Source of the DNA: an uncultured Ignavibacteria bacterium
Lineage (GTDB): Bacteria > Zixibacteria > MSB-5A5 > CAIYYT01
Assembly (NCBI GenBank): GCA_964537215.1
Contig: CAZIBI010000011.1
Location: 4,517 to 68,516, forward strand
Length of the DNA stretch: 64,000 nucleotides
Direction of reading: 5' to 3'
Shown here: in pieces, positions 7,526 to 56,120 of the stretch
How the letters are laid out: every line of letters starts with the position of its first letter
Numbering within the stretch: position 1 is the stretch's first letter
Made by a program: the position numbers and the translations under genes
Notes under the pieces: generated by a model
Seen by the model: only the letters and a program-made list of their open reading frames with translations
Told to the model about the DNA's origin: nothing
The model's database searches: none

Positions 7526-8089
7526 TCATAGCACCGTCCGCGACAACCAGCCGTGGAGGTACCTGCGAAACTGTGAATTGTTGATTGCTAACTGCGTATA
7601 GAAGGCCCGCCGCAAATCCACCTGGCTCTCGGCGATCCAAGCGTAGTCTGACTTTGCCGCGGTCAATGCAGCAATCGTCTGATCGCCCATGACACCATCG
7701 ATCTTGACATCGATGCGCGACTGCGGACTTTTGTTGTGGACGTTTAACGCTGACTGCAAAAATATGACAGCCCGTTGGGCGCCGATATTCACAGCGGCGT
7801 CGAAAAGTTCGTTGGCTATTCGCTGGTGGATAATCTGGTTGCAGCGCAGTCGCTCCCAGATGTCGAGATAGAATGTCTCAACCTCGTCATTGATATCCGG
7901 GTCCAGCTCGAGCATGCGCGGGAAGCCGGGCCCCTTCTTCATCTCGTCGACCTTCACCCACCCCGGCCATTGTGGGTTGCGCTTGCGAGCAATGCCGCGA
8001 AACGTCTCGCCGCCTGGATCGGCGGGATCGATTGAATAGCCGCCCTCGTGCTTGGAAGTTTGCTCCCAAGCGTATTTGAATTCTGCCAT
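7526..8089 (-). CDS. Endolysin, glycoside hydrolase family 108 lysozyme domain with C-terminal peptidoglycan-binding domain
   Basis: The N-terminus carries the GH108 signature HEGGYSIDPADPGGETFRGI. The C-terminal part resembles PG_binding_3. Confidence 0.75.
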   Translation of the reverse strand: MAEFKYAWEQTSKHEGGYSIDPADPGGETFRGIARKRNPQWPGWVKVDEMKKGPGFPRMLELDPDINDEVETFYLDIWERLRCNQIIHQRIANELFDAAVNIGAQRAVIFLQSALNVHNKSPQSRIDVKIDGVMGDQTIAALTAAKSDYAWIAESQVDLRRAFYTQLAINNSQFRRYLHGWLSRTVL

Positions 8090-9136: not shown

Positions 9137-9520
9137 TTAGACTGTGGCCAGATTGGTAATCTTGAACCGTAGTTCATCGACAAAGGTCTTGGGCTCAGCG
9201 CCCGCAAGGACGACGGTCAAAGTTAGGACGTGCGTTTCCTCGCAGATCTCGGCTCCGCCGCTGTACACGATCACCGCATCAGCCGGAGTGAGCTCCAAGA
9301 GAAATTCTCCATCTTCATTGAAGCATTCGATCAAGTTCATTGCATTGCGACCGTTGACTGCTGCTGTAGGTTTTCCCTCGACCGTGATTTTTCCCGTCGC
9401 CGATGCGATCATCGAGCGGACGACGACGGTTCCATCCGAGGTTTTCAATTCCTGATCGAAATACAGGTCGAAGGAATTTCCCTCGCGGACTGAACCGGTT
9501 ACGTTGATCGGCATTGTCAT
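9137..9520 (-). CDS. Hypothetical protein (127 aa), coupled to the giant fibre gene by a 4-nt overlap
   Basis: ORF with a 4-nt overlap; possibly a fibre chaperone or assembly factor. Confidence 0.35.
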   Translation of the reverse strand: MTMPINVTGSVREGNSFDLYFDQELKTSDGTVVVRSMIASATGKITVEGKPTAAVNGRNAMNLIECFNEDGEFLLELTPADAVIVYSGGAEICEETHVLTLTVVLAGAEPKTFVDELRFKITNLATV

Positions 9521-12500
9521 TGCCTCCGAATTCGTGCTTTGATTAGTTCTGTGACTCGCGTAATGGCCGCATTGAGCGATGCGGATTTCATCGCAGCGCC
9601 GGACAGCTGCAGGGATTGCAACAGAACTTCCGTTAGCTCCGGCGTCCGCAACATTGCGCCGCCGAGCTCCGGCACAAACAGCCTGGCGTTGGCAATCGCC
9701 AGGACCGCCAGAAAGACGCCTATGTATTCAACTGGAAGTTGCGACTGTGCAATGATTCCGCGCAGGGCTTCGACCTCGAGCCGCGAACGCAGGCTGAAGG
9801 CGCGATTGAATTCAATGTGAGTTGTGATAGATCCCGACACCGGGCTGACAAAGTCAATCGACATGTGGCCCGTCGCGCCAATTCTCCCCATCCATTCCGC
9901 GAGAATACCCTGGGCGGCCGAAATTGCCTTGTTATGCTCGACGGCAAGCCGGTTGGAAGCCGCGAAGGCCTTGCCGGTCTCAACCAGAAGAGTTCCGCCG
10001 ACAACGTTAATCGTCGCACGCGATTCGATCGGCAACCGCGTGTTGGCCGCGACTGACGCTTTCCACTCAACCGGAATCGCGGAACTCATTGAGACGACCG
10101 TTGCGCCGGAGAATTCGAGCGGCAGCTTTGTCGCAAGAATCACTTGCAGCGCGTGCTCGATATTGGTTTTCAATACGCTTGTGACAATCGTGCCCGTATC
10201 GATTTGAAATTGGCTCTGCGCGGCAAGCTTACGCAGGAATTCGGTATTCATGCCAGCGATCACGCCCGCCAACGCCCGGCTTAATTCAACCGGAGCATTC
10301 AATCCGCCGGAAACAGACTTGAGCGATTCCGCCGGCAGCAACGCCGAAAGCGTCCGGACTGAAAGCGACTCGATCTCGACGCGGCCGCGGGCGTCGACCG
10401 AACTGCGCCATTCGACCGGCAGCTGCGCCGACACTTGGAAGTTCTGTGCTCCCAACCACTCGACGGCGATCTGTTGGGCAAAGGTGATCGTGGCCGCCAG
10501 CTCAACCGGAGCCTTCGCCATCGACAACCGCTGCATCAAGACTTCGACCAGTACACTGTTCGCCGCTTGAAGAGTGCGAAGGTGCTCGGTAAGTAGCCGC
10601 GTGACAATCTGCGTGCTGGCCAACCATTCGACCGCGGCTGCGCTTTTAACTATCAGAGATCCGGAGAAATCGACAGCGAGTTTTTGCCCGGCCGCAATCG
10701 CCCTGTTGGTCTCTACCGGGACGATGCCGCTAATCTGAACAGATCCCAGGAATTCGACCGGCAACGCGTGAGTCATCGCTACCTGAAATTGCCCTGTCCA
10801 CTCAACGGGAAGACTGACCGCGTTCGCGACGCTGCGCAGTGATTCGACCGGAACGATTTGCCCGGCAGCTACCAGCTTATTGATCTCCGCCGGCGACGTC
10901 ATCGCCGCAGCAAGTTGCCGCAGCGTTTCGACTGGAGCGACTAAGACCACTGCGAATCCGCCGCGCAGCTCGATTGGAAGTTGAACCGCGGCTGTTAAAC
11001 CGCGTGCGTTTTCGACCGCCATTCCTGCCGGCGTAACCAGGCTGTGCAGCAGATCCGCCGGCATCCCCGATATTGCGGACAGCGAGCGGACATAATCAAG
11101 CGGCAACGTGAAAAGAATCGCGACATTGCCCTTGTACTCTGCCGGCAGCATACTTCGCAATTCGATCCCTGCGAGTGAATCGACAGGAAGCGGCGTGCTC
11201 GCCTGCAGCGTGGAACGCCATTCGGAGAATATCTGCTGGGCAGTCGCCAATTGCTTGTTGGCTTCAACCGGCACGGCGATCTTCGCCTGGAGCGAGCCGG
11301 AGTATTCGTCGGGTAATTTTGTCGCGATCGCAATCGCCGCGAGGCTTTCCATATACTGCTTTAGCGACGCAACCAATGCTGCGCTGAATTCTACCGACAT
11401 TCCTGATCGTGCCTGCAATGAACCGCGCAACTCCGTTGGCAAAAGTGAGCGCGTCTGAAGTGCGCTATTATTCTCGGATGCCAGTACGGCCGTTGATCGC
11501 GTAAAGTATTTGTCCAGCTTCATGTCGATCGTGAATTGCTCGACGCCGGCGCCAAGTAGCGCGATATCGGTCGTGAAGCCCGCAACCTCTTCCGGCTGCA
11601 GATCGATGACCGGGTTGAGATCCCACCAGTAGATTTTGATTTCTTCGATTTCGGCGGTGACGTTTCCCGATGTCGTTACAGTGACCGCGTAATAATCCAC
11701 CTTGACCGAGTACTGACCCAGCGGCAAGCCCAGCGCCTTCAAATCAAATGAAACGGTTGTGCTCTGGAAGCTCGTGGTCAGATTCGTAATCGTGGCCGTC
11801 GAGTTGGCAACAGCTTTCGTCGCATCGTAGGTTGCGCCGCTGGAGACCCACACGTGGAAGCTGGCACTGGAACCGGCCGAGCTCGAGGTCAGCTTCGCGC
11901 GAATCTTGACGTCGAGTTTCCAAACGTCATTCTGCGCCATTTCGTGCTTGCCGTCTTGCGTCGCTTCGTAGGTGGCTGTGTGATCCGTGCTGTAAGAAAT
12001 TGTGTTATCGGTGAAGCTCGATGTCACCGTTGTCGTTTGCCGCTTGTCCTTCTTGCGCTTGACGATGATCTGATCGAAGTACGATCCTTGATCCGCCTTC
12101 AATTTCCATTTCGTCGCATTCGCGATTGAACTTGTGATTTCATCGGCAATCTTGGTACCGCCAAACCAGGCAGAGCAGCCAACGGAAGTGATCTGCAGGG
12201 CGACTTGATACATCTGGCTCTCGAGCGCGTGCAAGCTGCTGTCGTGCCACCCGGTGGAATCTTCGTACTGCGCATAGCTCACGTCGCGATTGATACCGAC
12301 CGACAACACGGCCGCGGCCGCATTGACCAGCTGCAAATAAGTCCGCAGGTACAGCTCATCCATCCAGAGAGCGCAACTAACGATGATATCATCGAGCGCC
12401 GAAGCTAAACTCTTCTCGAGCGCGAAGGTGCCACCCGGAGCGGTTTTCAGCGACCGCGAACCGGTGGCTGTCTTGTTCGGATGATTCGGAGGGCTGACGT

Positions 12501-15474
12501 AAACGGATCCGCTACTCGAGGTCACGGTCATGCCGCGCACGCCATTGACATTCGCTCCGTCCGCGAGCGTCTCAAAGTTCTCATACCCGAGAGGATAGAC
12601 AATCGTCGGATCCGACTTCGGATTGGTCGCGATATCGGGAGCGCCGTAATAGACGTAGAGATCCTTAGCGCCGGCCTTCTTTCCGGCCGACAACGCTTCC
12701 GGTGCCCGGAAAGAGACTATCGTCTCTTCATAGTTGGCGTAATCGATCACGCGGTCCAGCTCGGTCGTGCCCCAATAGACGCGTAGGTCCTTTACGTCGC
12801 GGCGAATCTTCCCATAGGGCGAGGCCGTGAGCTGGAAGACGTCGTTGCCCGATGTCCACATCAGATCAATGCGGTTGTTGGTCAGGCTGTGCTTGATGTT
12901 AAGTATCGGGACGCCAATAGATGAATTGCCGGTAAGGCTCCGTTTTGCCCAGGTTGCACCCGCGTCGTTCGAGAGCAGCTCGATAATCTCAGACGAATAG
13001 CTCTCGTCATCGGATGCTTCGACGAATTCGACAAGGCGATTAACCCGGCTAACTCTGATCGACGCGCCGGCGGTGAGCTGCTTGAATCCAAACTCGACCG
13101 TCTCTGCGGCAGCTTTGGTCCAGGCTGCCGAGGTCGACGGGTTCGTCGTCCAGATATATATTTTCTCGCCATAGGCAGTGTTGGTCAAGACCAGGTCCGG
13201 GCTCTGATAATCCGTGCTCGAGATCCGCAAGATCGCCCGCAGGTCCGGCGTGCCGGAGACCTTCTTCGCAGCGATCGCGACACCGACACCGATGATCAGC
13301 ACATCCGAAGGCAGCGTTGCCGACTTGGTAAAGGAGGCCTCGCAGGTGGACGACGCATGGAGATAAGTATCGTCGGCGTCATAACGTTGAATGCCGTCGT
13401 CGACCAGCGCGTAGTTGACTGACCCGGTCGAGCGTGAAATGTTTGTATGAAAGCCGTCGGCGGCCGGAATGTGATGCTTGTATGCGCGCGAGTCGGCAAC
13501 AGTATAGCAGTGAATCGTGCCGTCCTTGTCGCAGATTGCCGGGCTGCCGCAACGTCCCATCCGGATATTGAAATCCAGATCTTCGGTCATATAGGTGTGC
13601 TGCCAGGCGCCGCTTGCATAGCGCGAGCTGCCAAGGCCACCATCACCATCTGGAGCCCCGAAATCTGGGGCGTAAGCCCACAATACCACCGGCTTATTGT
13701 CGCGCGTCAATGTCAGGTGCCGACAAAAGAAGCTGACGCGATTCCCCGTTTCGTTTTCAATCACTGCGCCAGCGCTGGCTTTGTTGATTCCGGTGCCGGT
13801 TGTACCGCACTGGATTCCAGCGATCGTTCGCCAGGTTGCAAAGCCTCCGGAGCCGCCTTCGTTGTAGTCGCTGTATGCGTACCAGACGCCGAGGGCAATA
13901 TTTGATCCTCCGACGAATGACCAGGCGATGTGAATGCGCTCATTCTTGTCGAGGCGCAAGCCATACATGTAAGTTCGATAAGAGCCGACGTCGTTGTAAT
14001 TGATGATCTCCTGCTCGGAGCTCCAGCTCTCCCCTACCGTGTCGGAATAGTAGAGCACGACCTTGGTCGCCGCGTCGGTTGGTCCCTTGCGCGCGAACAT
14101 GTAAATGCGATTCGAAGAAGGCACCACGATCGCGATCGGATAAGTGTTCTGCGATCCGAGCGTGCCTTTGAGCGTCCAGCCGGTTTCGCCGGCAAAAGCG
14201 CCGGACTGATTTGGTGAGACCGACTTTGCGTAATAGGTCGCCGTGTAATGACAGCCATAGAAGACGTGCAGGTAGCCGGTGTTGTCGATCGTGATCGTCG
14301 GATAGTAGTGGGTGTCAGTGCCTGTGTGCGCGTTATCGATCTTATAGGGCGTGCCCCACTTGTTGGTCACATAGTCATAGCTCTGGATGTAAATACCGAG
14401 ATAGAAATCGCTCTCGAGCTGGCCGAGATAGACGACGTGCTTCTTGGTGCCGAACTCCGCGACCGCATATCCGCTTTCCTGGATCGCTTCATTGTAAGCG
14501 CCGTTGGTTGCAATCTTGTACCGGTTGCCGGTCTTGATTTTGAACTCGTGCGTGTAGTCATCGGTGCATCCGGAGTGCTTCGTATTGAACAGCATCTTGC
14601 GGCGGAAACAATATTTCTCATCCGCCCAAATCCGGTTGATACCTTTGAATTGCGCGTAAGCGCTGTAGTCCGATTCAATCGCCGACCCGTCTTTGAACTT
14701 GATGCGCCAGTAGTACCAGCCATTCGGCGGATCAGATGACAGCTCGCTGCCGTTGTAATCGATCAGCTGGCAGCGGTTGCCGTGCGAAATATCAGTGATA
14801 TCAATCCAGCCCGAGTCCCACACCGTCGAAGCGAAATTAGAAACCGTCGAGACCTGAACATAAGCATGCGTCGCTGTTCCCGATCCGGCAGTGGCATTCC
14901 ACTGCGCCGAGAAGACGGGATCTTCCGAAGCGTCGGTCGGCTGCGACTGGCGCTCGCACTCGAGGTTTGTTGGCGACGGGTGATTCGCGAGGGTGTAATC
15001 GACAACGATCCACACCTGCGTAACTTCCGGATGTTCGCCGGCGACGCCGCGGGCCCGGCACTTGACTCCAGCTTGCAGCGAATCGATATCGCTCGCCGAC
15101 CAGCTACCACCGCCCGGTCGCGAGACCACTTGAGAGTATTCGGCCCAGGATGTCGTAATCGAGAACTGGCTGCCTTCGACCGTCGTGCCGCCGAGGCGCA
15201 GGATCGGGATTACCTGGTTGTTGGTCGAAGTTCCAACCTTGCGGCAGCGAACATAGACCGTGACCGAATTGACAGCGCCATACGCGCCCGCATGATTCTC
15301 CAGCGCATAGCTGTCGGTCAGGTAACTGGTGCCGGTCGTGAAGACGTAAGTCGTGGCATCATCAGCCGACGACTCCGCTACGCACTCCCAGTTGGTTAAG
15401 AGGAGTTCAGGATCTTGTGGCGTCAGCGCGGTGAGGTCACCGGCACCGTTCGGGCGTAAGAGTTCTGTTGACAC
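9517..15474 (-). CDS. Giant (1985 aa) tail fibre or host-specificity protein: N-terminal Ig/FN3-like and beta-propeller-like regions, then about 40 tandem degenerate 18-aa repeats (LPVEW-type) at the C-terminus
   Basis: A single uninterrupted ORF. Its C-terminal ~700 aa are periodic (...SLPVEWTGQFQVAMTHALPVEFLGSVQISGIVPVETNRAIAAGQKLAVDF...). At DNA level the CCGGTCGAA-type unit recurs about every 54 nt. Confidence 0.6.
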   Translation of the reverse strand: MSTELLRPNGAGDLTALTPQDPELLLTNWECVAESSADDATTYVFTTGTSYLTDSYALENHAGAYGAVNSVTVYVRCRKVGTSTNNQVIPILRLGGTTVEGSQFSITTSWAEYSQVVSRPGGGSWSASDIDSLQAGVKCRARGVAGEHPEVTQVWIVVDYTLANHPSPTNLECERQSQPTDASEDPVFSAQWNATAGSGTATHAYVQVSTVSNFASTVWDSGWIDITDISHGNRCQLIDYNGSELSSDPPNGWYYWRIKFKDGSAIESDYSAYAQFKGINRIWADEKYCFRRKMLFNTKHSGCTDDYTHEFKIKTGNRYKIATNGAYNEAIQESGYAVAEFGTKKHVVYLGQLESDFYLGIYIQSYDYVTNKWGTPYKIDNAHTGTDTHYYPTITIDNTGYLHVFYGCHYTATYYAKSVSPNQSGAFAGETGWTLKGTLGSQNTYPIAIVVPSSNRIYMFARKGPTDAATKVVLYYSDTVGESWSSEQEIINYNDVGSYRTYMYGLRLDKNERIHIAWSFVGGSNIALGVWYAYSDYNEGGSGGFATWRTIAGIQCGTTGTGINKASAGAVIENETGNRVSFFCRHLTLTRDNKPVVLWAYAPDFGAPDGDGGLGSSRYASGAWQHTYMTEDLDFNIRMGRCGSPAICDKDGTIHCYTVADSRAYKHHIPAADGFHTNISRSTGSVNYALVDDGIQRYDADDTYLHASSTCEASFTKSATLPSDVLIIGVGVAIAAKKVSGTPDLRAILRISSTDYQSPDLVLTNTAYGEKIYIWTTNPSTSAAWTKAAAETVEFGFKQLTAGASIRVSRVNRLVEFVEASDDESYSSEIIELLSNDAGATWAKRSLTGNSSIGVPILNIKHSLTNNRIDLMWTSGNDVFQLTASPYGKIRRDVKDLRVYWGTTELDRVIDYANYEETIVSFRAPEALSAGKKAGAKDLYVYYGAPDIATNPKSDPTIVYPLGYENFETLADGANVNGVRGMTVTSSSGSVYVSPPNHPNKTATGSRSLKTAPGGTFALEKSLASALDDIIVSCALWMDELYLRTYLQLVNAAAAVLSVGINRDVSYAQYEDSTGWHDSSLHALESQMYQVALQITSVGCSAWFGGTKIADEITSSIANATKWKLKADQGSYFDQIIVKRKKDKRQTTTVTSSFTDNTISYSTDHTATYEATQDGKHEMAQNDVWKLDVKIRAKLTSSSAGSSASFHVWVSSGATYDATKAVANSTATITNLTTSFQSTTVSFDLKALGLPLGQYSVKVDYYAVTVTTSGNVTAEIEEIKIYWWDLNPVIDLQPEEVAGFTTDIALLGAGVEQFTIDMKLDKYFTRSTAVLASENNSALQTRSLLPTELRGSLQARSGMSVEFSAALVASLKQYMESLAAIAIATKLPDEYSGSLQAKIAVPVEANKQLATAQQIFSEWRSTLQASTPLPVDSLAGIELRSMLPAEYKGNVAILFTLPLDYVRSLSAISGMPADLLHSLVTPAGMAVENARGLTAAVQLPIELRGGFAVVLVAPVETLRQLAAAMTSPAEINKLVAAGQIVPVESLRSVANAVSLPVEWTGQFQVAMTHALPVEFLGSVQISGIVPVETNRAIAAGQKLAVDFSGSLIVKSAAAVEWLASTQIVTRLLTEHLRTLQAANSVLVEVLMQRLSMAKAPVELAATITFAQQIAVEWLGAQNFQVSAQLPVEWRSSVDARGRVEIESLSVRTLSALLPAESLKSVSGGLNAPVELSRALAGVIAGMNTEFLRKLAAQSQFQIDTGTIVTSVLKTNIEHALQVILATKLPLEFSGATVVSMSSAIPVEWKASVAANTRLPIESRATINVVGGTLLVETGKAFAASNRLAVEHNKAISAAQGILAEWMGRIGATGHMSIDFVSPVSGSITTHIEFNRAFSLRSRLEVEALRGIIAQSQLPVEYIGVFLAVLAIANARLFVPELGGAMLRTPELTEVLLQSLQLSGAAMKSASLNAAITRVTELIKARIRRQ
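9520..11500 (-). repeat. Tandem degenerate ~54-nt coding repeats (about 40 copies) inside the giant fibre gene
   Basis: Recurrent ttcgaccgg / ctcaaccgg / ctcgattgg motifs at regular spacing, matching the P[VI]E[WF] periodicity in the protein. Confidence 0.6.
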
Positions 15475-46872: not shown

Positions 46873-48516
46873 TTAGATTAGAGTGATGCCGGCAGGCTGC
46901 TTTCGGATCTTTCTCTTCGCCGTCGGCTGCGTTGCCACATCCACGGGCACCGTTGGTTCTGTCCTCACCTTTGCCTGAGACACATGTCCGACTCGCTCCA
47001 GGTATCTCAAGAACCACTGAACACCCCGCTCGGTGATCCAAGCTGCCGAGAGCTGGTCGTCGTGATCACAGGCCGTCGGATCGTGAAGCTCTTCGATCAG
47101 ATTGTCAGTGATTTCCTTATCTTCGGGAGTCTTGTACGGGAAATGGATTTGGCGGTTCTCACAGAGCACCGAGAGCGATGGATAGCCTGCGAATGGATCG
47201 TACTTATTGCCGCCGGTGTAGTGCTTTTTGATCGGGACGCCGGTCTCTTCTCTGATATGCCAGCTGTAGATTTCACCGAAGGCATTTTCTTCGAAGAACA
47301 TCCGGTTCGGGCGATGAAGTCGGCACTGGTTGACGATCGTGCTCTTGACTGTCTTCGGCGACATTCCGCGATCGCGGAAGAGATCCAGCAGATACCGATG
47401 TTCGTTTTCCGCGATGCCCCAGGTCATATTGACAAAGAAATCGGTGTCGTTTTTCTCGGCCCGCTTCTTGTCAGTAACTAAGGCCGGGTCGCACCCGGAA
47501 ATGATGCCAAGGAATTTCTTCCGGTCGTACTCGCGGTAGCTAATTGTATCATCGCAGCACGCCTTGAGGTCGTCTCGCGAGATAAGTGCGCTAACATCGT
47601 CGCTCGCCTCCTGCTGATATTTCAGGTTGAAAGCGACAGTGCCAATTTCGCGGCGCAGAGCGAGCAGTCGTTTGACCGGATATCGCTCTTCGGTGAGTGC
47701 CTTGCCCGGAAACTTTAGGTCAATTTCGACGCGCCACTTACTGCGGTCGCCGAATTCATTGACCTCATGCCGCGGCAGCTCGACGATGCGGTAATGCTCT
47801 GGCCCCGGATCCTCGACCAGCGCCTTGCTGATAATCATGTGGTAGTCGGCAAGGCCCGCAAGGTACGCGTAGATGTCCTTGGGGTGCTGCTTATTGGCGA
47901 GCACCAACAAACGGCCGCCCGGTACCAAACGCGTACGAATCGCGTTCTGGAACATGTGGACGTGGAACTTCCGCGTCTTCTCGCTTCTGACGTTGAGATC
48001 GTTCTGGATGTCATCCAGAAGGATCAAGTCATAGTGCTTCCCGTAGAAGCGCTTCGAGTCCATGCCGTAGGCCTCGAAGGTGCGCTCTTTCGCATTGAGG
48101 TCGCGGCGAACTTGGAAGCGACGATCCGACCAATACTTCGCAGTCCTAAACGGTCCGAAGTCCTCGATGATTCTATCGTTCTCGAGGTCTTGGCGGAGCA
48201 CCGAGCCGGAGGCCTCCGAAAGGTCGCCGGTCGATGAAATATAGCAAATGCGGATGTTGCGATTGAATGTTATCGACCGCAGCGGAACAAGCCGCGCGAT
48301 AACTTCGGTCTTGCCGGAATCCGGCGGGCCGACGATGCCACCCTTGGTGATCTCGCGCAGTTCTTCGAACCACGCCTTTTGACACGCCCAGAGATTTAAG
48401 TCAAGATAGTACGCCGCATAGAATTTGATCGACTTCGCGGCAAGCTTGCGCCTCGCTGTCGGGGTGCTTGCACCCAAATCTCTAAGTGCGGCATTGATCT
48501 CACTTGGGCTTATCAC
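46873..48516 (-). CDS. Terminase large subunit (547 aa)
   Basis: An N-terminal P-loop (GIVGPPDSGKTEV) and a C-terminal nuclease-like region (DTDFFVNMTWGIAE) are present. The gene lies between the TerS-like and portal genes. Confidence 0.75.
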   Translation of the reverse strand: MISPSEINAALRDLGASTPTARRKLAAKSIKFYAAYYLDLNLWACQKAWFEELREITKGGIVGPPDSGKTEVIARLVPLRSITFNRNIRICYISSTGDLSEASGSVLRQDLENDRIIEDFGPFRTAKYWSDRRFQVRRDLNAKERTFEAYGMDSKRFYGKHYDLILLDDIQNDLNVRSEKTRKFHVHMFQNAIRTRLVPGGRLLVLANKQHPKDIYAYLAGLADYHMIISKALVEDPGPEHYRIVELPRHEVNEFGDRSKWRVEIDLKFPGKALTEERYPVKRLLALRREIGTVAFNLKYQQEASDDVSALISRDDLKACCDDTISYREYDRKKFLGIISGCDPALVTDKKRAEKNDTDFFVNMTWGIAENEHRYLLDLFRDRGMSPKTVKSTIVNQCRLHRPNRMFFEENAFGEIYSWHIREETGVPIKKHYTGGNKYDPFAGYPSLSVLCENRQIHFPYKTPEDKEITDNLIEELHDPTACDHDDQLSAAWITERGVQWFLRYLERVGHVSQAKVRTEPTVPVDVATQPTAKRKIRKQPAGITLI

Positions 48517-49105: not shown

Positions 49106-49400
49106 TAGGAGTTGAGACTTTCGGGTTCAATGCAGCGCGGCGTTATTGGCGCCGCGCCGCTACTTCAGGGAGGTACTGGCTTACATATAAAGGAAGGACT
49201 GTACTTTGTGACTGGGGATGTTGTTGGCGTTGAGTTGATTAACTCAAGTTGGGTGTTTTTGCACCCGTTGGTGGACAAGGAGTTACTGGTGTATTGCGAG
49301 CGGAATTTCAAAAAACTATTTTTTCGGCGAGTACGACTAAACTTGGCTTAAGTTATTCGCCGATATGTTTTTGCGGAAAGTGAAAGTTTTTTTGTCTACC
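49106..49400 (-). promoter_or_regulatory. 295-bp AT-richer intergenic region upstream of the packaging and late operon, with a terminator-like GC hairpin and a 7-bp palindrome
   Basis: The hairpin gcgcggcg-ttattgg-cgccgcgc lies at about 49131-49153. The palindrome TTGAGTT-gatt-AACTCAA lies at about 49232-49250. There are A/T runs around 49310-49400. Confidence 0.45.
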
Positions 49401-49667
49401 CTAATATACTTCCCGGAAATCGCATTTGTCGCACTGAATTATTTGACTAACGAGGTCACCGTCGCCACCTTCTTCGGTGTCAAAACACTCCTGTGTGTAA
49501 TGGATGAGTCCGCCGCATTTGCATCGTTTGGGGAATTTCTCATTCCTAAGTGTGCCAAACTGGTTCCAATCGAGGCAGCCAGAGCAATTCTCTACCGCCC
49601 GAAAGTGTTCCGGCCAGGCAATATTGAAACCTTCGTTGTCGCTGAAGAAAAACTGGCTTGGGATCAT
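49401..49667 (-). CDS. Cys-rich zinc-ribbon protein (88 aa)
   Basis: The Cys clusters are CSGC...CKCGG...C...CDKC. Its start and the stop of the upstream 80-aa gene overlap in an ATGA. Confidence 0.4.
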   Translation of the reverse strand: MIPSQFFFSDNEGFNIAWPEHFRAVENCSGCLDWNQFGTLRNEKFPKRCKCGGLIHYTQECFDTEEGGDGDLVSQIIQCDKCDFREVY

Positions 49668-49906
49668 CCGAGAAGCTCCCTTGGGACGCCGAGGCTGACA
49701 GTGCCCGCCTCCAGGTACTGTTTGAAATTCCGGTCGTCCATGATGTACCTCATGAATATTCCGTACTCGGAAGTTAGGGTGACTCCCAGATAGAGCTGGC
49801 CGAAGAACGCTGGATCGCGCCTCGCGCGTTCCATTAGCCTTCTCACCGTCCGCTTTGTTGCCTTCCGTCTCCGCCCCGGGCAGACGCCGCGCTTCCAAGC
49901 CTTCAT
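49664..49906 (-). CDS. Small basic protein (80 aa)
   Basis: An ORF with a protein-like composition, coupled by ATGA overlaps on both sides. It is preferred over the overlapping 177-aa frame, whose N-terminal half is low-complexity. Confidence 0.4.
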   Translation of the reverse strand: MKAWKRGVCPGRRRKATKRTVRRLMERARRDPAFFGQLYLGVTLTSEYGIFMRYIMDDRNFKQYLEAGTVSLGVPRELLG

Positions 49907-50403
49907 TTCCCCTCCGCCAAATCAGCCGCGTCAATCGGGTCGCTGAATACTCTAAAGCTGAAGTCGTAGCGATCAGGGTGCGTCACTTCTTCCGGATGTC
50001 TCATTCTCCAGACCCAAGTACTTCTCGACCCGTTGGGCAGGTTCCACTTCTCGCCTTTGTAGATCAGTGTTATGACGTCAGTGGCGACGACTTTCCTAAA
50101 TCGGTAAACGCCCGGACCCTCCTCGTATGAATATAGGCTGTCGAGCCGATAGAGCATTTCGCCATTGCCCTTTACGCCATCGGCTTCGGCAACTCCAGAG
50201 CTTAACGGCGGCAACTGATTGCCAAACCGTTCAGTCATCCCTCTGACCAGCGAGGCATTGGTTTCGATTTCCTCAAGGTTGCGATTGATCTCGCCGGCAG
50301 CGTATAGGACATAAATCAAAGCTGACACGGAGAAGATCAAGCTGAACACGTGAAACCATGTGCCAATAAGCGAATAATCATGTATGGATTTCTTCGCTGT
50401 CAT
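49903..50403 (-). CDS. Membrane protein (166 aa; N-terminal transmembrane helix plus C-terminal domain)
   Basis: The transmembrane segment is IGTWFHVFSLIFSVSALIYVLYAAG. The gene lies directly downstream of the HerA-like gene. Confidence 0.45.
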   Translation of the reverse strand: MTAKKSIHDYSLIGTWFHVFSLIFSVSALIYVLYAAGEINRNLEEIETNASLVRGMTERFGNQLPPLSSGVAEADGVKGNGEMLYRLDSLYSYEEGPGVYRFRKVVATDVITLIYKGEKWNLPNGSRSTWVWRMRHPEEVTHPDRYDFSFRVFSDPIDAADLAEGK

Positions 50404-50416
50404 TCTTCCTCCACCT

Positions 50417-52258
50417 CTAACTTAACTGATCCGCTATCAGCTGCGATAGCCTTATTTCGGACGATCCTTCTATCAGGCCGAGCGAGCGCATGCGCGAAAG
50501 ATACTCGCCGAAAGTCCCACCGCTCGCTACCACACCCACCAAATCGGCAAGCTCTGCCCTGCTGATTCCTTTGGGGTGGTCCAGGATAATATCGAGCATC
50601 TCAGCTTGCCGCGCGTTCAAATGGTTGGCCTTATACCAGTCGATCAACTCCCTTCCGATCGGCAGCGGCTCGACATCGCGGACGGTGGCCTCGCCTGTGG
50701 CGGTTATTCGGATGCTATCCCGTTGCCCCTCAATCAGTCTGGCTACTCGTAGGCGCGAGAGATACTCCCCAAACGTACCGCCGGTACTCTTGAGCCCGAC
50801 CAGCGTCCCGATTATCCGAGCACTGGTCGACTCAAAACCCATCTGTTGACGCTGCGAGAGAGCTACCAGAATGCGCTTCTGGGAAGCGTTGATTTTGAAG
50901 TCGCCGTCAACTTGTTCAGCTTTCTTTACATCTTTCGGAACATGTAAAGTTTCGGGGCGATTTCTGAACGAGTTTGGCTGTTCCTTGGCGACTTTTACAG
51001 ATTCCGTTATTGTGTTATCTTCCTCACGGACTGTAAGGTGCCGGGTGCCTGGTGTGAAGGTTCGGTGAACTCGCATTTCCGTTGAATGACCTTTCGGGTC
51101 GACCTCTTCAACTCTCTTTTTGTTCTCGATTATAACTCCGGCCATCGCGTGGACGTCCTCAATGAAGCTTTCGGCGGGAGAGAGGCGTTTAACCAACCTT
51201 CCGACAAGCCTTTCCGCGTCAATTAGGCTCTTGCGAAGACCCATGATTTCGGTTCCATGATCGCACGGCTTCACCTGGCTCTTTTCCGCCAGCGTCAACT
51301 TGCGCTTAAGGTCGGTTATCTCCCTGCGGAGATCCTCCGTCGTGCGCGCCTGCTCTTCGGCTTCCTGCGGGAGATCTGCGAGTTTAGCGAGGATGTCCTT
51401 AACCTTTGCGTTCGGCGCCGGCGGCGTCTCGAGGAAACGAGCCCCGACCTTGGGGTGGTGCGTCTCAACCGGACCGACCTTGAGCAATAGGACACCGGGG
51501 GCTTCCTGTTTGTCGGTTCGCCAAGCCGGACCGTAAGCGTAGAAGTCCCCGGGTCGGAGGATTCGCAAGGCTGTTCTGTCGGCCTTGCCGATGAGTCCAA
51601 GTTCGTCGGCGGCTCTTGCCTGGTCGATGTCGAGAGACGTTCGGCCAATAAGCTTGTTACCCAGTTCCGCACAGACGTCCTTGTGGAACTTCGATAGTCT
51701 TTGTGTGGCTGCTACGAGACAAAATCCACGTTTCCTTCCCCTCGTGGCCAGATCAATTACGGATGGTGCGGATTCAGCTTGGCCTTTTTCCGGACAGAAG
51801 TGATGAGCTTCGTCGATCACTACAAGTATCGGACGCCACAAATCTTTCTTGACCATCATGAGAGACTCGAGGAAAAGCCGCACAAATCGGATTCTGTCAT
51901 GGGCTTTCAGCTCGTAGAGATCGCAGATCGCGGAGACCTGCAGCTCCATCAGCTTTTGCGCGAGTAGCCCGGCCGTCTTGGGCGAAGCCTGCACGTCGCC
52001 GTTCTTGCTGGCGATGATGTAATCAAATTTAGAGCGGAGCGTCGAGAACTCGCCTTCGAGGTCGATGACAATCTGCTGCACCTGTCCGTGCGATTGTTCG
52101 AGCAGCCGGCGAATCGCCCAAGACTTTCCGGCGCCGGATTGCGCCTGAATCAACGCCCGTGATTCGATCAAAGTCGGAAGGTCGAGATCGAGATCGCGGC
52201 CTTCGTTGGTCTTGCCGATGTTAAGTTTCATCGCCGGTTCCTCCGAAAGAACTTCCAA
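50417..52258 (-). CDS. HerA/FtsK-superfamily P-loop ATPase (DUF87-like) with two C-terminal winged-helix repeats (613 aa)
   Basis: Walker A (AQSGAGKSWAIRRLLEQ) and Walker B (PILVVIDEAHHFCPEKG) are present, as is ATRGRKRGFCLVAATQRL. The C-terminus carries a tandem ...GGTFGEYLSR(L/M)R...LIEG... duplication. Confidence 0.55.
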   Translation of the reverse strand: MEVLSEEPAMKLNIGKTNEGRDLDLDLPTLIESRALIQAQSGAGKSWAIRRLLEQSHGQVQQIVIDLEGEFSTLRSKFDYIIASKNGDVQASPKTAGLLAQKLMELQVSAICDLYELKAHDRIRFVRLFLESLMMVKKDLWRPILVVIDEAHHFCPEKGQAESAPSVIDLATRGRKRGFCLVAATQRLSKFHKDVCAELGNKLIGRTSLDIDQARAADELGLIGKADRTALRILRPGDFYAYGPAWRTDKQEAPGVLLLKVGPVETHHPKVGARFLETPPAPNAKVKDILAKLADLPQEAEEQARTTEDLRREITDLKRKLTLAEKSQVKPCDHGTEIMGLRKSLIDAERLVGRLVKRLSPAESFIEDVHAMAGVIIENKKRVEEVDPKGHSTEMRVHRTFTPGTRHLTVREEDNTITESVKVAKEQPNSFRNRPETLHVPKDVKKAEQVDGDFKINASQKRILVALSQRQQMGFESTSARIIGTLVGLKSTGGTFGEYLSRLRVARLIEGQRDSIRITATGEATVRDVEPLPIGRELIDWYKANHLNARQAEMLDIILDHPKGISRAELADLVGVVASGGTFGEYLSRMRSLGLIEGSSEIRLSQLIADQLS

Positions 52259-52617
52259 ATGATCGGATCGAGGTTATACGTCCACGATGGGTAAAAGCGG
52301 CCGAGCGTCAGCAACCCGACAGTAGCTTCGGCGAAGTTGATGACTGCATAAGTCAAGTCATCCAGGAACTCAGCACCCCAGAAGCGATACTCAATCGAGA
52401 AAGCCGCTATCTCATTGATCCGCTTTTTGAATTGTTCCGCCAACTCTTCGTTGTTCTTTCCTGCTGTCATTTCTTCCCGCCTTCCCTTTCCGCCAAATTC
52501 AGAAGCGAATCTACTTCGGCATCGGTCGGATTTGTATCGAGTTTCAGCCTTCCACCATCGGTACCACCAGGTAGGGGATAATAAATACCGCCTCTGCCTT
52601 CGTGAGCGTCGATACAA
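52228..52617 (-). CDS. Hypothetical protein (true start probably the internal Met, about 80 aa)
   Basis: The ORF overlaps the HerA-like start. The alternative overlapping frame 52467..52763 carries a signal-peptide-like N-terminus. The two could not be resolved by eye. Confidence 0.25.
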   Translation of the reverse strand: MYRRSRRQRRYLLSPTWWYRWWKAETRYKSDRCRSRFASEFGGKGRREEMTAGKNNEELAEQFKKRINEIAAFSIEYRFWGAEFLDDLTYAVINFAEATVGLLTLGRFYPSWTYNLDPIIWKFFRRNRR

Positions 52618-52729
52618 TAACTTAGGCCGGAGCGAAATGATTTTCGTCTCTCATCCCGAACCCATAGCCACGCAAGCAGTGGTTGGCTTAGAATCAGGGT
52701 ACAGAGGATGACCGCTCGAGTGACCTTAC

Positions 52730-53215
52730 TCATCCCTTCCCCTTTCCCACGCAGGCGGAGCAAAGATCGGGTTCGACCCAGTGGCAGAAGCCTTCATCCG
52801 TAGAGCATGCGGAAAATTCTGTGCATGCACAAACGCGGCACTTCTTATTGGCATCAGTCTGTGCAGCCTTCCGTTCCCGCGTCATGTTGAAAAAGTCCCG
52901 CGCGGCAAAGACGCGTCCGATGCCCATGATCTCACGCGCCCTGTTGGCTTCTGCCACGGTCCAGCGCTGTCGCGGCTTCCGCTGAATCTTGTTCATCTCG
53001 AAGATGTCGCAGATTGTCAGCTCCAACTCTTCAACCCGCTTGTTCATGGCAACAATTTCGTCGAGTTCATTTACTGCCGCGAGCAATCCCTGATAAGCAA
53101 GCCTCGTATGCTCGACCTGCTCTTTACTGTCTAATGAGAGGTCCTCGAATTGCGTCCGGCATCCCTTCGCCGCCTCCTCGATGCGGCGAATAATGTCGAT
53201 CTTCGCTCGGTTCAC
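52730..53215 (-). CDS. Hypothetical protein with a C-terminal Cys cluster (161 aa)
   Basis: The C-terminus reads CRVCACTEFSACSTDEGFCHWVEPDLCSAC. The gene overlaps the ParB-like gene by 4 nt. Confidence 0.4.
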   Translation of the reverse strand: MNRAKIDIIRRIEEAAKGCRTQFEDLSLDSKEQVEHTRLAYQGLLAAVNELDEIVAMNKRVEELELTICDIFEMNKIQRKPRQRWTVAEANRAREIMGIGRVFAARDFFNMTRERKAAQTDANKKCRVCACTEFSACSTDEGFCHWVEPDLCSACVGKGKG

Positions 53216-54831
53216 TTCTTCCCTGCCTTCTTCTCCGGTGCGGCGCCGACCTTCGGCTTCGCGTCGGGGATCGCTTTCACCGCGTCCGCTTCGAGGTCGG
53301 ACCAGTTGAGGCCGAGCAGGTGAATTGCAATCTGTTGCGTTGCCTGCCAGTCATCAACGTAGATGCTCTCCGATACGACTCTCCAGATTTCCTTAAGCGC
53401 CGCACCTTCGCTCATATTCTTCCACTTCGCGAGTCCGTCAAATTTACCGTGATCGTTGCAGATAAGCGCGGATGCAAAGAGCCTCATGACGTCCATCGGG
53501 GTGAGCAAAACAAGATGCGCCGGTGGGTTAGAGCGCGAATCGAAGGAATTCATTATCTTCTCGCGAATCCACTGCTCGCGCCGTGCCGCAATTTCTTCGG
53601 CTTTCTGTTTCTCAACTTGTTCCGGCGTCATCTTCTTGACATCAGCCTTGGTCGGTTTCTTCGGCTCATCCGCCTTCTTGATCTTGATGTAGCTGATCGA
53701 TCCAAGCCCTCTCTCGTTGATCGTCATGGCGGGGACTGCGCCCTTGTCACTCTTCCTGACGACCTCGTAACCTAAGTCACTACTCCACGGTTTGGGCTTA
53801 ATGAGGGTGTTGCCGCGCGACAAACCTCCGACGATCCGATTATCGCCCCTGCCCCAGCCGGAGTTCTTATCCAAAAGCACAAGGTTCGGATGTTTGGCTT
53901 GCGCCTCTGCAAGCTTCTGCTTGCCGAATTTTTCCAGCTTCTTGTTCCAGCAGGCGATGTCCAAACACTTGTCCTCCGGCGATGCTTTCTTGCCATCGAC
54001 TTCGCCGTCGAAAAGCAGCGACTGGCAGGACGACCGTTTCGGGCAGGCGCTACAAGCACCGGCAGCCGGGAACAAAATCGCGTCATCGAGCTTCCACGGC
54101 GCGGACTTGAGCGTTCGATCGAACGCCGATAGCTCGCGCTTAACATCGTTGACGGTCGGGACGTTGCTGCTCTTCAAGTAAGATTGCAGTAGCTTGCCCT
54201 GTACGCTCGGCTCATAACTGGCGATCATTTCGAACGCGGCCACTGATAGAGCTTTGCCTTCTCGCAAGTTGGCGATGTACTTCATCCATTCCGGCGTGAG
54301 CTTATTGAGCTGCTCGCGCCGCGCTACCGCCTGCGGTGTCATCCCCAGATCGGCGGCAATATCTTTCGTCTCGCGGCCGTCGTCGCGCAGATTCTTGATC
54401 GCGGCCGCTTCTTCGAATGCGGTGAGCTGCAAGCGGTGAAGATTGGCAGTGAGCTGGATCGTCTGCATTTTGTCACCAGGCATGTCTTCGGCGATCTCTA
54501 TCACGCGCGCGGTCTTGGTTTTGTTCTTCTGCAGAGCGGCGAACCTCCGATGGCCGTCAACCAGCAAATACTTCTCGTTGCCTTTGATGTCGCCGCCGTC
54601 CGGAATGTGCTGCACGATTAACGGAATTTGCAGTCCGATTGCGGCGATGGATTTCGCCAACGTGTCGATATCACGCAGGCGGTCGTTCCCTTGACTCGCC
54701 CGAATGTGACTCAATTCAATTTCTTTTACTTCTTCTCTTGCGGTGGTCATTACTTCCTCACTTGGTTCGTTGAAAACTCTCCGGCTCCCAGAAGACCAGC
54801 CAGCGGTCGACTGTCGCAGTCGGTTCCTCAA
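53212..54831 (-). CDS. ParB-like nuclease / partition-family protein (539 aa)
   Basis: An N-terminal ParB domain (...YLLVDGHRRFAALQ...) and a central HTH-like region are present, followed by a Lys-rich C-terminus. Confidence 0.6.
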   Translation of the reverse strand: MRNRLRQSTAGWSSGSRRVFNEPSEEVMTTAREEVKEIELSHIRASQGNDRLRDIDTLAKSIAAIGLQIPLIVQHIPDGGDIKGNEKYLLVDGHRRFAALQKNKTKTARVIEIAEDMPGDKMQTIQLTANLHRLQLTAFEEAAAIKNLRDDGRETKDIAADLGMTPQAVARREQLNKLTPEWMKYIANLREGKALSVAAFEMIASYEPSVQGKLLQSYLKSSNVPTVNDVKRELSAFDRTLKSAPWKLDDAILFPAAGACSACPKRSSCQSLLFDGEVDGKKASPEDKCLDIACWNKKLEKFGKQKLAEAQAKHPNLVLLDKNSGWGRGDNRIVGGLSRGNTLIKPKPWSSDLGYEVVRKSDKGAVPAMTINERGLGSISYIKIKKADEPKKPTKADVKKMTPEQVEKQKAEEIAARREQWIREKIMNSFDSRSNPPAHLVLLTPMDVMRLFASALICNDHGKFDGLAKWKNMSEGAALKEIWRVVSESIYVDDWQATQQIAIHLLGLNWSDLEADAVKAIPDAKPKVGAAPEKKAGKK

Positions 54832-54997: not shown

Positions 54998-55611
54998 TCG
55001 TCTCCCTTCTTTGGATCAAGACTCTTTAACTTCGCCGTGTCGACTGGCGCCAAAGTTGAATCCGGCGACCAGCCGTCTATCTGGTTAAAGTCGATCACGC
55101 TCGTGTTCATCATCATCATCTGATCGGTGATCGCTTCCCTCGCGCTTTCGGAGACGATCCAGTAAATGCCGCGGATTGAATCCCGGCTGGTGATCGCGTA
55201 GACCTTGCGAATGCCTCTTCCCCGCGCGACTTCAATGCCGCCGAATTGCTGCGACGTCCAATTGGTGTCCTCGGTATAGGTCTCAACAACCTGGGGAAAC
55301 TCGCCATCGAAGAGGAAGAACGACCGCGGACACTCGCAGGGTTTCGGTTCCGGTCCGCCCGCAAAGATGTAGTTGATCAGCCACACGGCATCGCCCATCG
55401 TGATGCGGCCGTCACCGTCGCAGTCGCCACCGGTTGAGGCTTTAGCAATTTCGATGGCGCTATTCAATGTCCAGAGCGCCGCGGCAATAAGAAGAACTCT
55501 GAAAATGATCAGAATGATAGCGGCACGTTTCGTAGTCATCGCGTCTTCTCCTTCTCTTTGTGCTCTAAGTCGCAACCCATCCAGCCGCCTTCCCCCTTGC
55601 AGATATCGCAC
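54994..55611 (-). CDS. Membrane-anchored protein with a dockerin-type Ca-binding repeat
   Basis: A hydrophobic anchor (AAIILIIFRVLLIAAALWTL) is followed by DCDGDGRITMGDAVWLINYIF, which fits the dockerin consensus D-x-D-G-D-G-x-I-x-x-x-D-x-x-x-L-x-x-Y-I. Confidence 0.45.
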   Translation of the reverse strand: MRYLQGGRRLDGLRLRAQREGEDAMTTKRAAIILIIFRVLLIAAALWTLNSAIEIAKASTGGDCDGDGRITMGDAVWLINYIFAGGPEPKPCECPRSFFLFDGEFPQVVETYTEDTNWTSQQFGGIEVARGRGIRKVYAITSRDSIRGIYWIVSESAREAITDQMMMMNTSVIDFNQIDGWSPDSTLAPVDTAKLKSLDPKKGDE

Positions 55612-56120
55612 TGGACATTGAGGTCTTCATCCGGTTCGAGACAACAGCAACAGTCTTCACCGCAATCGTGATATGCGCCTTCGCCGGAACAACTCCAGCA
55701 GCCAATCCATTCCAGCGGGGCACCACATTCTTTGCAGTAGCCATCATCGTCGGGAACGTACTGCTCTACGGTGAAGCCTTCCGGCAAGTCGAACAGCCCC
55801 AGCTTCCCTTTGACTGAAACCGATACGATGCGCTGCACGTCTTCCAAAATCCACGCCCACGCTTTCGGATAGACTTGGCATTTCGCGGCGGCCTCGTGAA
55901 CCTGTGTCATTGGAACACAATCGACCAATCTCACAAGGCAGAGGGCAATGCCCTTGGGGAGCTTGTCCATTTCGTCCTTGCTGAAGTTCGGATTGGGTGT
56001 CTTGCTCGCACAGATCAGAATGTCGCCTCGATAGTTCGTCTTGTACGTCCGCGTTTCAATAGTCTTTTCTCCGGACGCAATCATCGAAGCCCAGGGTTGG
56101 ATAATGGAGAGGGCTTTCAT
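55536..56120 (-). CDS. ASCH (PUA-like) domain protein with a C-terminal poly-Cys tail
   Basis: The N-terminus reads MKALSIIQPWASMIASGEKTIETR. The C-terminus carries about 16 Cys residues (...CKECGAPLEWIGCWSCSGEGAYHDCGEDCCCCLEPDEDLNVQCDICKGEGGWMGC). Confidence 0.55.
   Translation of the reverse strand: MKALSIIQPWASMIASGEKTIETRTYKTNYRGDILICASKTPNPNFSKDEMDKLPKGIALCLVRLVDCVPMTQVHEAAAKCQVYPKAWAWILEDVQRIVSVSVKGKLGLFDLPEGFTVEQYVPDDDGYCKECGAPLEWIGCWSCSGEGAYHDCGEDCCCCLEPDEDLNVQCDICKGEGGWMGCDLEHKEKEKTR

Follow-up and report, generated by a model that had tools for sequence, protein, structure and literature searches.

HerA, FtsK, TraB, TdtA and the viral packaging NTPases are ring-shaped motors of double-stranded DNA (dsDNA), and motors of the HerA/FtsK type serve in DNA repair, in the segregation of chromosomes, in conjugation, in packaging by membrane-containing viruses and, as recently found, in anti-phage defense. 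The window analyzed here, a 64-kb stretch of contig CAZIBI010000011.1 from an uncultured Ignavibacteria bacterium, reads as a prophage and encodes an ATPase in which a HerA-type core is followed by a long C-terminal extension ending in two winged-helix (wH) domains. The ASCE core, Walker A and B motifs, polar sensor and conserved arginine place the protein in the FtsK/HerA superfamily of P-loop ATPases, within which it belongs to the HerA clade but lacks the HAS barrel. By analogy with the motors above, it could well be an autonomous ring-shaped DNA translocase or remodeler acting on the DNA of the element that carries it, a reading that we rate as evenly balanced.

ATPase core and C-terminal extension

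The gene and the parts of its product are listed below (aa, amino acids; AF2, AlphaFold; pLDDT, predicted local distance difference test).

50417..52231, minus strand: ATPase gene, start ATG at 52231, stop at 50417-50419, 604 aa
51437..52231, minus strand: ATPase core, aa 1-265
51101..51436, minus strand: linker motif PPxPTxKI..L..LADLPxEAE (aa 266-320) and coiled coil, from the alignment and from DSSP on the model
50897..51100, minus strand: low-complexity disordered linker, approximately aa 378-445, with pLDDT below 50 at residues 378-443
50420..50896, minus strand: tandem wH domains, wH1 at approximately aa 446-522 and wH2 at approximately aa 523-604, from a separate AF2 model

A larger open reading frame (ORF) at 50417-52258 gives 613 aa from a TTG and contains the motifs quoted in a preliminary description of this DNA (GAGKS, VIDEAHHF and ATRGRKRGF). 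The ATG at 52231 is most likely the better start, because a GGAGG lies 9 nt before it and its ATGA overlaps the stop codon of the gene upstream, and because a product of exactly 604 aa is found in a public protein collection, where products of exactly 604, 166, 80 and 88 aa are independent gene calls. We use this 604-aa product in place of the 613 aa of the preliminary description.

The core contains Walker A (S32-G-x-G-K-S37), the HerA-type D57-x-E-G-E61, Walker B (D140-E141), R164-G-R-K-R-G169 and the sensor T176-Q-R178, together with the basic residues K181, K184 and R197. All of these columns are invariant in an alignment of 44 homologues, and the ATPase is therefore under selection to stay active. 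Pfam DUF87, the HerA central domain, matches with 37.2 bits against a cut-off of 23.2 (E = 4.5e-9), and the best sequence match in the PDB is Deinococcus HerA (7f6d, 1e-8). An AF2 monomer model built on the 44 homologues has a pLDDT of 85 overall and above 90 in the core; its best Foldseek match in the PDB is HerA (4d2i, 4e-13), followed by the HerA subunits of SIR2-HerA and DUF4297-HerA and by the STIV2 B204 NTPase. A viral structure library gave alignments only to minimal packaging NTPases, the best matches, and to a small number of "FtsK/HerA-like" phage proteins; all of them are limited to the core, and no full-length match was found there. The absence of a HAS barrel follows from the position of the P-loop, which begins at residue 32 and is preceded in the model by only two short strands, as in all aligned homologues. 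The model also contains no nuclease domain.

Beyond the core and the linker motif, the coiled coil spans aa 287-376 as two helices (287-318 and 326-376, from DSSP on the AF2 model). Across the 44 homologues identity is 42% in the linker motif, 15% in the coiled coil and 14% in the disordered linker, which also varies in length. Modeled separately, the wH pair forms a rigid unit (pLDDT 95; predicted template modeling score 0.86), with the helix GGTFGEYLSR(L/M)R in each domain and the arrangement GGTFGEYLSR(L/M)R...LIEG repeated twice. Its profile matches, to DtxR, MntR and MarR wH domains, are weak (E 0.005-0.05; best E 4e-3), its Foldseek matches are generic (MarR, SelB and ScpB), and neither profile nor fold searches returned an FtsK-gamma-like match for the pair. 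The wH domains are 34-35% identical across the homologues against a mean pairwise identity of 66% for the core, a pattern suggestive of a conserved engine joined to a variable address module. The preliminary assignment to the HerA/FtsK superfamily with a tandem wH tail is confirmed by the DUF87, Foldseek and wH model results together.

Canonical HerA proteins, namely those of the HerA-NurA pair of archaea and Deinococcus and of the Sir2-HerA and DUF4297-HerA systems, share with the ATPase the core clade, DUF87, D-x-E-G-E, RGRKxG and TQR. They differ in having a HAS barrel, whereas the ATPase has neither this barrel nor an obvious helical-bundle insert, and in working with NurA, Sir2 or DUF4297, none of which accompanies the ATPase or its relatives. 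The ATPase in turn adds the coiled coil and the two wH domains, and it scores far below the equivalog cut-offs (37.9 bits against 970 for the NCBIfam HerA equivalog NF040819, and 23.5 against 800 for anti-phage HerA). PADLOC profiles for HerA (1.8e-16) and mad8 (1.5e-14) both match on the core.

FtsK, SpoIIIE and TraB are dsDNA pumps whose C-terminal wH domain reads KOPS, SRS or clt sites. The ATPase follows the logic of FtsK/SpoIIIE and of Streptomyces TraB, that of a ring-translocase core and then a C-terminal wH "address" domain, and FtsK or TraB would be its nearest architectural analogy. These proteins have a membrane anchor, whereas the ATPase contains no hydrophobic segment (maximum Kyte-Doolittle hydropathy 0.97 in a 19-residue window), and Pfam FtsK_SpoIIIE and Ftsk_gamma gave no match to it at E <= 0.1 to 1. 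FtsK has one gamma domain, whereas the ATPase has two wH domains on a coiled-coil stalk and a core nearer to HerA than to FtsK. Like the ATPase family, TraB is carried by mobile elements, according to a report on the Thermus thermophilus protein TdtA (PMC5365140). That report describes TdtA, encoded by the mobile element ICETh1, as a HerA-like protein of HerA size that forms hexamers with a dsDNA-wide channel and is active as an ATPase. TdtA takes part in donating DNA from one cell to another and works with a NurA-like nuclease, whose gene lies upstream in the same four-gene operon (PMC5365140). Compared by description only, TdtA differs in that no wH tail is reported in the accessible text (PMC5365140), whereas the ATPase has two wH domains.

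The minimal packaging NTPases of membrane-containing viruses (STIV2 B204, the corticovirus and PH1 ATPases and A32-like proteins) have a similar compact core without accessory domains, but they are approximately 200-300 aa long and belong to non-tailed viruses, whereas the ATPase is encoded in a tailed prophage with its own TerL and carries a 340-aa C-terminal extension. Its nearest labeled sequence relatives are the small mad8-type ATPases and a 504-aa alphaproteobacterial paralogue. The mad8 profile (MADS, PADLOC PDLC04140) is the only one whose alignment takes in nearly all of the core (aa 11-217, matched to positions 3-262 of 314, E = 1.5e-14), and it stops short of the wH tail because it is only 314 positions long. 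Like the ATPase, mad8 is a small HerA-like ATPase without a HAS barrel. Other MADS profiles gave no significant match among the window proteins tested with PADLOC, and the role of mad8 is not described in the MADS paper.

The 504-aa protein, an "ATP-binding protein" of Sinorhizobium meliloti (L153 7989-9503; chromosome, labeled pSymB in the record), is encoded between murI and rpsD. It is 38% identical to the ATPase over the whole core, including the post-core HHP segment, and has the same Pfam DUF87 signature, but its context is a housekeeping one, its C-terminal half is different and it has no wH pair. It appears to be a housekeeping-context paralogue of the mobile-element family. Records of Sinorhizobium, Shinella, Bosea, Methylobacterium, Indioceanicola and Sphingobium contain further tblastn matches to aa ~1-281 (36-38% identity), the context being known for S. 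meliloti only.

Other identities were considered and rejected. The protein is not a large terminase, since separate TerL, terS and portal genes are present, it has no nuclease domain and PHROG 2666 ("terminase large subunit") matches its P-loop core only (2.6e-18). A ParA-type identity is ruled out by its Walker A, SGAGKS and not KGGxxK[ST], and by a fold that is HerA-like and not that of Soj/MinD. The known HerA-containing defense systems (Sir2-HerA, DUF4297-HerA and MADS) are matched by the ATPase only, and six other nearby proteins had no significant PADLOC match.

Distribution and gene neighborhoods of the family

The ATPase has more than 2,433 matches among 5.8 billion proteins; among the matches listed, most have 520-630 aa and align at 41-48% identity over approximately 97% of the query. 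Pattern scans placed at least 65 family loci in IMG/VR viral contigs and genome relatives in approximately 20 bacterial lineages, which include Ignavibacteria, Zixibacteria, Nitrospinota, Patescibacteria, Chloroflexota, Acidobacteriota, Planctomycetota, Gemmatimonadota, Myxococcota and Proteobacteria. Among the cultured hosts of the family are Rhodanobacter sp. B04, Nitrobacter vulgaris DSM 10236 and Nannocystis exedens DSM 71, and records of cultured phages gave three partial tblastn matches only. Actinobacterial plasmids carry full-length homologues of 23-26% identity that keep the C-terminal wH pair, with Pfam HTH_Crp_2 and HTH_45 matches at the C-terminus. One relative was located at the border of a conjugative element of F type (an integrative and conjugative element, ICE, with TraL/E/K), next to DUF4326 and primase genes. 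A prophage-like island that also carries SbcCD-like genes, YopX, DUF5131 and a methylase houses another relative. The family layout is that of a HAS-less HerA core, a PPxPT...LADLPxEAE linker, a coiled coil and two C-terminal wH domains in approximately 520-630 aa, and the ATPase of the window conforms to it. Judged from these sequences, the DUF87-coiled coil-2xwH layout is conserved in tailed phages and prophages, an ICE and actinobacterial plasmids, and the window holds one ordinary member of a large family already labeled "DUF87 domain-containing protein" in databases.

Neighboring genes were clustered by all-against-all BLAST of ORFs from 71 and then 153 loci and by hidden Markov models, and 109 non-identical full-length loci were counted. 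No conserved partner gene emerged from this clustering, as no neighbor family is present in more than 23% of the 109 loci. Pfam scans of three ORFs on each side of the ATPase in the first 71 loci, 276 flanking ORFs in all, gave scattered matches to PolA, UDG, N6/N4 and C5 methylases, DUF5131, RusA, RNR, ParB, HNH and helicases. The preliminary description had remarked on the lack of a NurA, Sir2 or DUF4297 partner, and this is borne out: none was found in the neighboring proteins tested or among the 25 commonest families of the 276 flanking ORFs. A RusA association is weak (3 RusA matches among the 276 neighbors); a local iterative search found none, and its sensitivity was low, because it also missed the weak RusA-like gene of the window itself. 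DUF5131 (phage Gp37/Gp68 family, with an N-terminal Cys cluster) is present in 21 of the 109 loci at a median of approximately 450 bp downstream (for example L004 12096-13016 and L082 7642-8625), and it is absent from the approximately 22 kb of the window included in the neighbor analysis (40.4-62.2 kb). The large same-strand ORFs downstream of the ATPase in viral loci (n = 69) gave approximately 11 terminase and approximately 11 portal domain matches, and the packaging module therefore lies within 9 kb downstream in a substantial minority of loci.

The commonest neighbor is a ParB-like gene of the same subtype as that of the window, found in 25 of the 109 loci, within 3.5 kb in 20 and adjacent (within 400 bp) in 8. 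A ParA/Soj-like ORF is present in a single locus of the 109, based on a Soj query that never matches the ATPase itself. These counts, and the presence of the ParB-like gene in the same coupled operon in the window and in three related loci (L001, L002 and L072), would fit a motor that partners the ParB-like protein in place of ParA and segregates, condenses or organizes ParB-clamped element DNA. We regard such a partnership as rather unlikely, given that approximately 77% of the loci have no ParB-like gene within about 10 kb on each side, and that tyrosine integrases near the ATPase in 14 of the 109 loci and the integration of the present prophage beside host genes speak against a plasmid lifestyle needing partition.

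The spread of the family also bears on the possibility that it is an anti-defense or host-takeover motor, stripping host nucleoid or defense proteins from the incoming or replicating element. The family is common to phages, an ICE (where it sits at the element edge with DUF4326 and a primase) and plasmids, and it often lies among orphan methylases, DUF5131 and ParB-like genes, as is typical of early or leading regions. This argument is one of context only, no similarity to known anti-defense proteins was found, and core conservation of 66% is unusual for arms-race genes, so that we consider this function very improbable.

Prophage operon around the ATPase gene

Every gene in 45-64 kb of the window is on the minus strand. 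Those that surround the ATPase gene, in the order of transcription, are listed below (pI, isoelectric point; RBS, ribosome-binding site).

55536-56120, minus strand: ASCH-domain protein with a very Cys-rich C-terminal extension (CKECG...CWSCSGEG...CGEDCCCC...CDICKGEG)
53212..54831, minus strand: ParB-like gene, 539 aa, with ParB_N, a helix-turn-helix and a CxxCPKR Cys cluster (Pfam, PHROG, NCBIfam)
52730-53215, minus strand: 161-aa gene with a Cys-rich C-terminus, upstream of the ATPase gene, coupled by a 4-nt overlap
52467-52733, minus strand: upstream 88-aa gene with a hydrophobic N-terminus, coupled by a 4-nt overlap
52228-52470, minus strand: upstream 80-aa gene directly before the ATPase gene, coupled by a 4-nt overlap
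49903..50403, minus strand: TM166, 166 aa with one N-terminal transmembrane helix, 13-nt gap after the ATPase gene, GGAGG RBS
49664..49906, minus strand: basic80, 80 aa, pI 10.9, ATGA overlaps at both ends
49401..49667, minus strand: Cys88, 88 aa, acidic, 7 Cys (CxxC...CxC...C...CxxC), ATGA overlap with basic80
46873-48516, in the same window downstream of the ATPase gene: TerL, PHROG 38

Overlaps of 4 nt (ATGA or GTGA) recur along the whole co-directional array, from approximately 62 kb to 49.4 kb and back to DnaB. The upstream part of this array comprises early/middle genes, with DnaB (at approximately 62 kb), RusA-like, ASCH and ParB-like genes and a 338-aa gene directly upstream of DnaB, and the ATPase gene lies near the 3' end. 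The preliminary description placed the ATPase at the head of an operon, but 4-nt overlaps couple its translation to that of the ParB-like gene and of at least three small genes upstream (80, 88 and 161 aa). The span 52228-52617, previously taken as one 129-aa gene, is the upstream 80-aa gene plus part of the 88-aa gene. ATGA overlaps had been described throughout; they do link TM166, basic80 and Cys88 to one another, but the ATPase and TM166 genes are separated by 13 nt that include an RBS. With a codon model derived from the large genes of the window, the annotated frame had the best log-odds for the ATPase and for each small downstream gene (TM166, 0.18 in frame).

The closest of the related loci examined here, L001, encodes an ATPase that is 73% identical and has the backbone of the window: DnaB, ParB-like gene, small genes, ATPase, then terS, TerL, portal and MuF. 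A tblastn search of 152 related loci (E <= 0.01) found the upstream 161-aa protein kept in L001, L002 and L072, a match for the upstream 88-aa protein in L072 only, and none for the upstream 80-aa protein. The C-terminal Cys-rich segment of the 161-aa protein (52730-53215, minus strand), CRVCACTEFSACSTDEGFCHWVEPDLCSAC, is present in L001, L002 and L072 and also, with 46-58% identity over 30-45 aa, in ORFs of L011, L026 and L069 that show no other relationship, and it looks like a small mobile Cys-rich module. Homologues of the ASCH protein lie near ATPase relatives in L002, L037, L042, L048, L056 and L065. The 539-aa ParB-like protein shows weak PRTRC-ParB similarity, and there is no ParA nearby.

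The company of DnaB brings up a further explanation, in which the ATPase is a replication initiator or origin-binding ATPase whose wH pair would bind element-specific origin sites while the ring melts DNA or helps to load the phage DnaB. Its layout recalls the ATPase-plus-wH initiators Orc1/Cdc6, MCM and the P4 alpha protein, a fast-evolving wH pair on a conserved engine is what element-specific site recognition would be expected to produce, and phages, ICEs and plasmids all need initiation. However, neither iterons nor a cluster of AT-rich repeats are present within the gene or close to it, the wH pair lacks a basic character, and the 338-aa gene upstream of DnaB is a more conventional candidate for an initiator or loader. 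To our knowledge, FtsK/HerA-type ATPases do not act as initiators, and we judge this role to be unlikely.

The three small genes downstream of the ATPase have the properties first attributed to them, namely a transmembrane helix in TM166 (Kyte-Doolittle 2.03 in a 19-residue window), a pI of 10.9 in basic80 and 7 Cys in Cys88, a possible zinc ribbon, all on the minus strand. None of them has a homologue in the 152 loci with ATPase relatives (tblastn, E <= 0.01). In searches of large libraries, which covered TM166 and Cys88 (basic80 was checked against the 152 related loci only), TM166 matched only itself among 5.8 billion proteins, and Cys88 matched only itself in 1.8 billion cluster representatives, apart from two 19-aa Cys-motif matches. 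None of the three gave a significant family match in Pfam, PHROG, NCBIfam or PADLOC, TM166 having one marginal NCBIfam match below the cut-off. In L001 the interval from the ATPase to terS holds just one gene, of the HTH_3 type, and L002 and L003, with ATPases 47% identical, have a reverse-strand gene there. The absence of homologues from the related loci and large libraries makes these genes lineage-specific ORFans on the same transcript, and they do not appear to be conserved partners of the ATPase.

The preliminary description had treated the ATPase and these three genes as a four-gene functional module to be sought in other genomes, and had proposed, as one of two alternatives, that it serves defense or superinfection exclusion, the three small proteins being novel partners of the ATPase. 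The co-occurrence fails, with the small genes found in none of the 152 related loci and replaced in L001 by the HTH_3 gene. HerA ATPases are known defense components, the PADLOC HerA and mad8 profiles do match the core, and a membrane protein with two tiny ORFans is typical of accessory "moron" genes. These PADLOC matches are nevertheless generic, two of the small genes are global ORFans, no effector domain is present, and the HAS barrel on which effectors dock in Sir2-HerA and DUF4297-HerA is missing. The ATPase gene is also translationally coupled inside an early operon of replication and DNA-metabolism genes, and its family keeps its place in replication modules across many phages. A defense or exclusion module is, in our view, very unlikely.

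The genes terS, TerL, portal and a Mu-F-like gene are all encoded in the window, terS following the ATPase region. TerL is recognized by PHROG (phrog_38, 1.3e-56) and barely by Pfam (E = 0.016). It co-clusters at 90% identity with a 49-aa "hypothetical protein" of Bradyrhizobium pachyrhizi (WP_346283736.1), which may be a terminase remnant from a related prophage. The spacer between Cys88 and terS has the following features.

49106..49400, minus strand: non-coding spacer of 295 nt before terS
49179-49192, minus strand: motif CTTTATATGTAAGC, present once in the 64-kb window
49133-49159, minus strand: 10-bp GC hairpin in the terS spacer

The motif core, TTATATGTAAG, is found a single time in each of L001, L002 and L003, in the corresponding position before terS, and is missing from 150 other loci. 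It is followed at approximately 20 nt by CCTGAAG and then by the 10-bp GC-rich hairpin, which keeps its position in three phages while its stem sequence differs in each. An Rfam search of 48.5-53.5 kb gave no match. The late promoter previously placed here is not seen as a sigma-70 promoter, since scans of 48.4-55.2 kb for the sigma-70 consensus and for intrinsic terminators stayed at background level. The motif and hairpin of the spacer, conserved in the lineage, are nevertheless a candidate for a late promoter/leader or a pac-type element. The wH pair is unlikely to be connected with TTATATGTAAG, because three phages share an identical motif although the identity of their wH domains is only about 31%.

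The position of the ATPase just upstream of terS and TerL, noted in the preliminary description, is borne out and recurs in L001, L002 and L003. Along with the PHROG 2666 match on the core (2.6e-18) and the terminase and portal genes found within 9 kb in a substantial minority of viral loci, it would suit the second role proposed there, that of a packaging or DNA-maturation accessory working with terS/TerL, for example by feeding or resolving concatemers, with Cys88 in the stead of an HNH endonuclease. The adjacency to terS is, however, confined to this sub-lineage, and the genes that follow in most loci encode such proteins as methylases, polymerases and helicases. The family is found in an ICE and in plasmids, which have no capsid, and the prophage already has a complete set of terS, TerL and portal. 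Cys88, an ORFan, has no HNH family match in Pfam or PHROG and no obvious HNH motif by eye, which leaves its proposed HNH-like role without backing. We consider a packaging accessory a very remote prospect, and the ATPase is unlikely to be either a packaging motor or a defense system.

Features in the remainder of the window are as follows.

383-1231: zf-HC2 anti-sigma-like protein, a host-type gene
1268-4870: TPR-CHAT protein of 1,200 aa, a host-type gene
7526-8089: GH108/PG_binding_3 endolysin
9517-15474, minus strand: structural protein of 1,985 aa with a BNR/sialidase-like repeat domain and a Rha78A-like Ig domain

The host-type genes in 1-6.4 kb, followed by the endolysin, place one prophage boundary near 6.4 kb. 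The 1,985-aa structural protein is probably a tail fiber or depolymerase.

Putative role in mobile-element DNA handling

The autonomous ring translocase or remodeler that we favor would work as follows. A HerA-clade core without a HAS barrel, the part that docks nuclease or effector partners in canonical HerA, may be self-sufficient. By analogy with every characterized relative, it would assemble into a ring and use ATP to move along or remodel dsDNA, and the basic core (pI 9.05), with the invariant K181, K184 and R197 after the sensor motif, would fit a DNA-contacting channel. The linker, coiled coil and disordered tether would connect the core to the rigid wH pair, a putative fast-evolving address module that could bind element-specific DNA or a partner protein and so provide recruitment. 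The ATPase is expressed within the early/middle DNA-metabolism operon of the prophage, with DnaB, RusA-like, ASCH and ParB-like proteins, and from this position it most likely acts on the phage's own replicating DNA. Candidate steps may include replication start-up or initiation, the processing of branched or concatemeric DNA, DNA organization with the ParB-like protein, and anti-defense. Assembly into a ring, the DNA that is acted on, the function of the wH pair and the step served are all inferred.

Several observations weigh against this scheme. Ring formation and translocation are extrapolated from relatives that are 12-24% identical. With a median pI of 7.2 and a net charge of 0, the wH pair is close to neutral, and among its generic fold matches are tandem wH modules that bind protein (ScpB) or RNA (SelB); for these reasons, binding of DNA by the tail stays putative. 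Iterons or repeated sites were not found near the ATPase gene, where short repeats are at chance level only. Because the neighbors vary from locus to locus, context cannot narrow the biological step, and the gene could be dispensable. A literature search on DUF87/HerA-like proteins, phages and winged helices yielded no study of the family. The preliminary description had also allowed for a standard replication or recombination helicase family with conserved neighbors of known function; the family does typically lie among such genes, but its function is not established and its neighbors are not conserved.

The object of interest is the single ATPase gene and its family and not the four-gene operon, whose small genes are ordinary ORFans. 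In tailed phages and prophages, the engine of the HerA/FtsK motors is found stripped, partner-less and fused to a DNA-address-like module, and a core that is 66% identical between distant hosts makes the ATPase probably important to these elements. We tentatively suggest, while holding it doubtful, that the DUF87-coiled coil-2xwH proteins are an unrecognized pan-bacterial class of autonomous mobile-element motors, in which a minimal HerA ring is steered by tandem wH domains to a step that has no described enzyme. If so, they might for example be the NTPase partner of ParA-less ParB-like clamps, or a site-loaded translocase that clears or reorganizes DNA before packaging or transfer. The role of the ATPase could thereby reveal an unrecognized step in the DNA handling of phages and other mobile elements.

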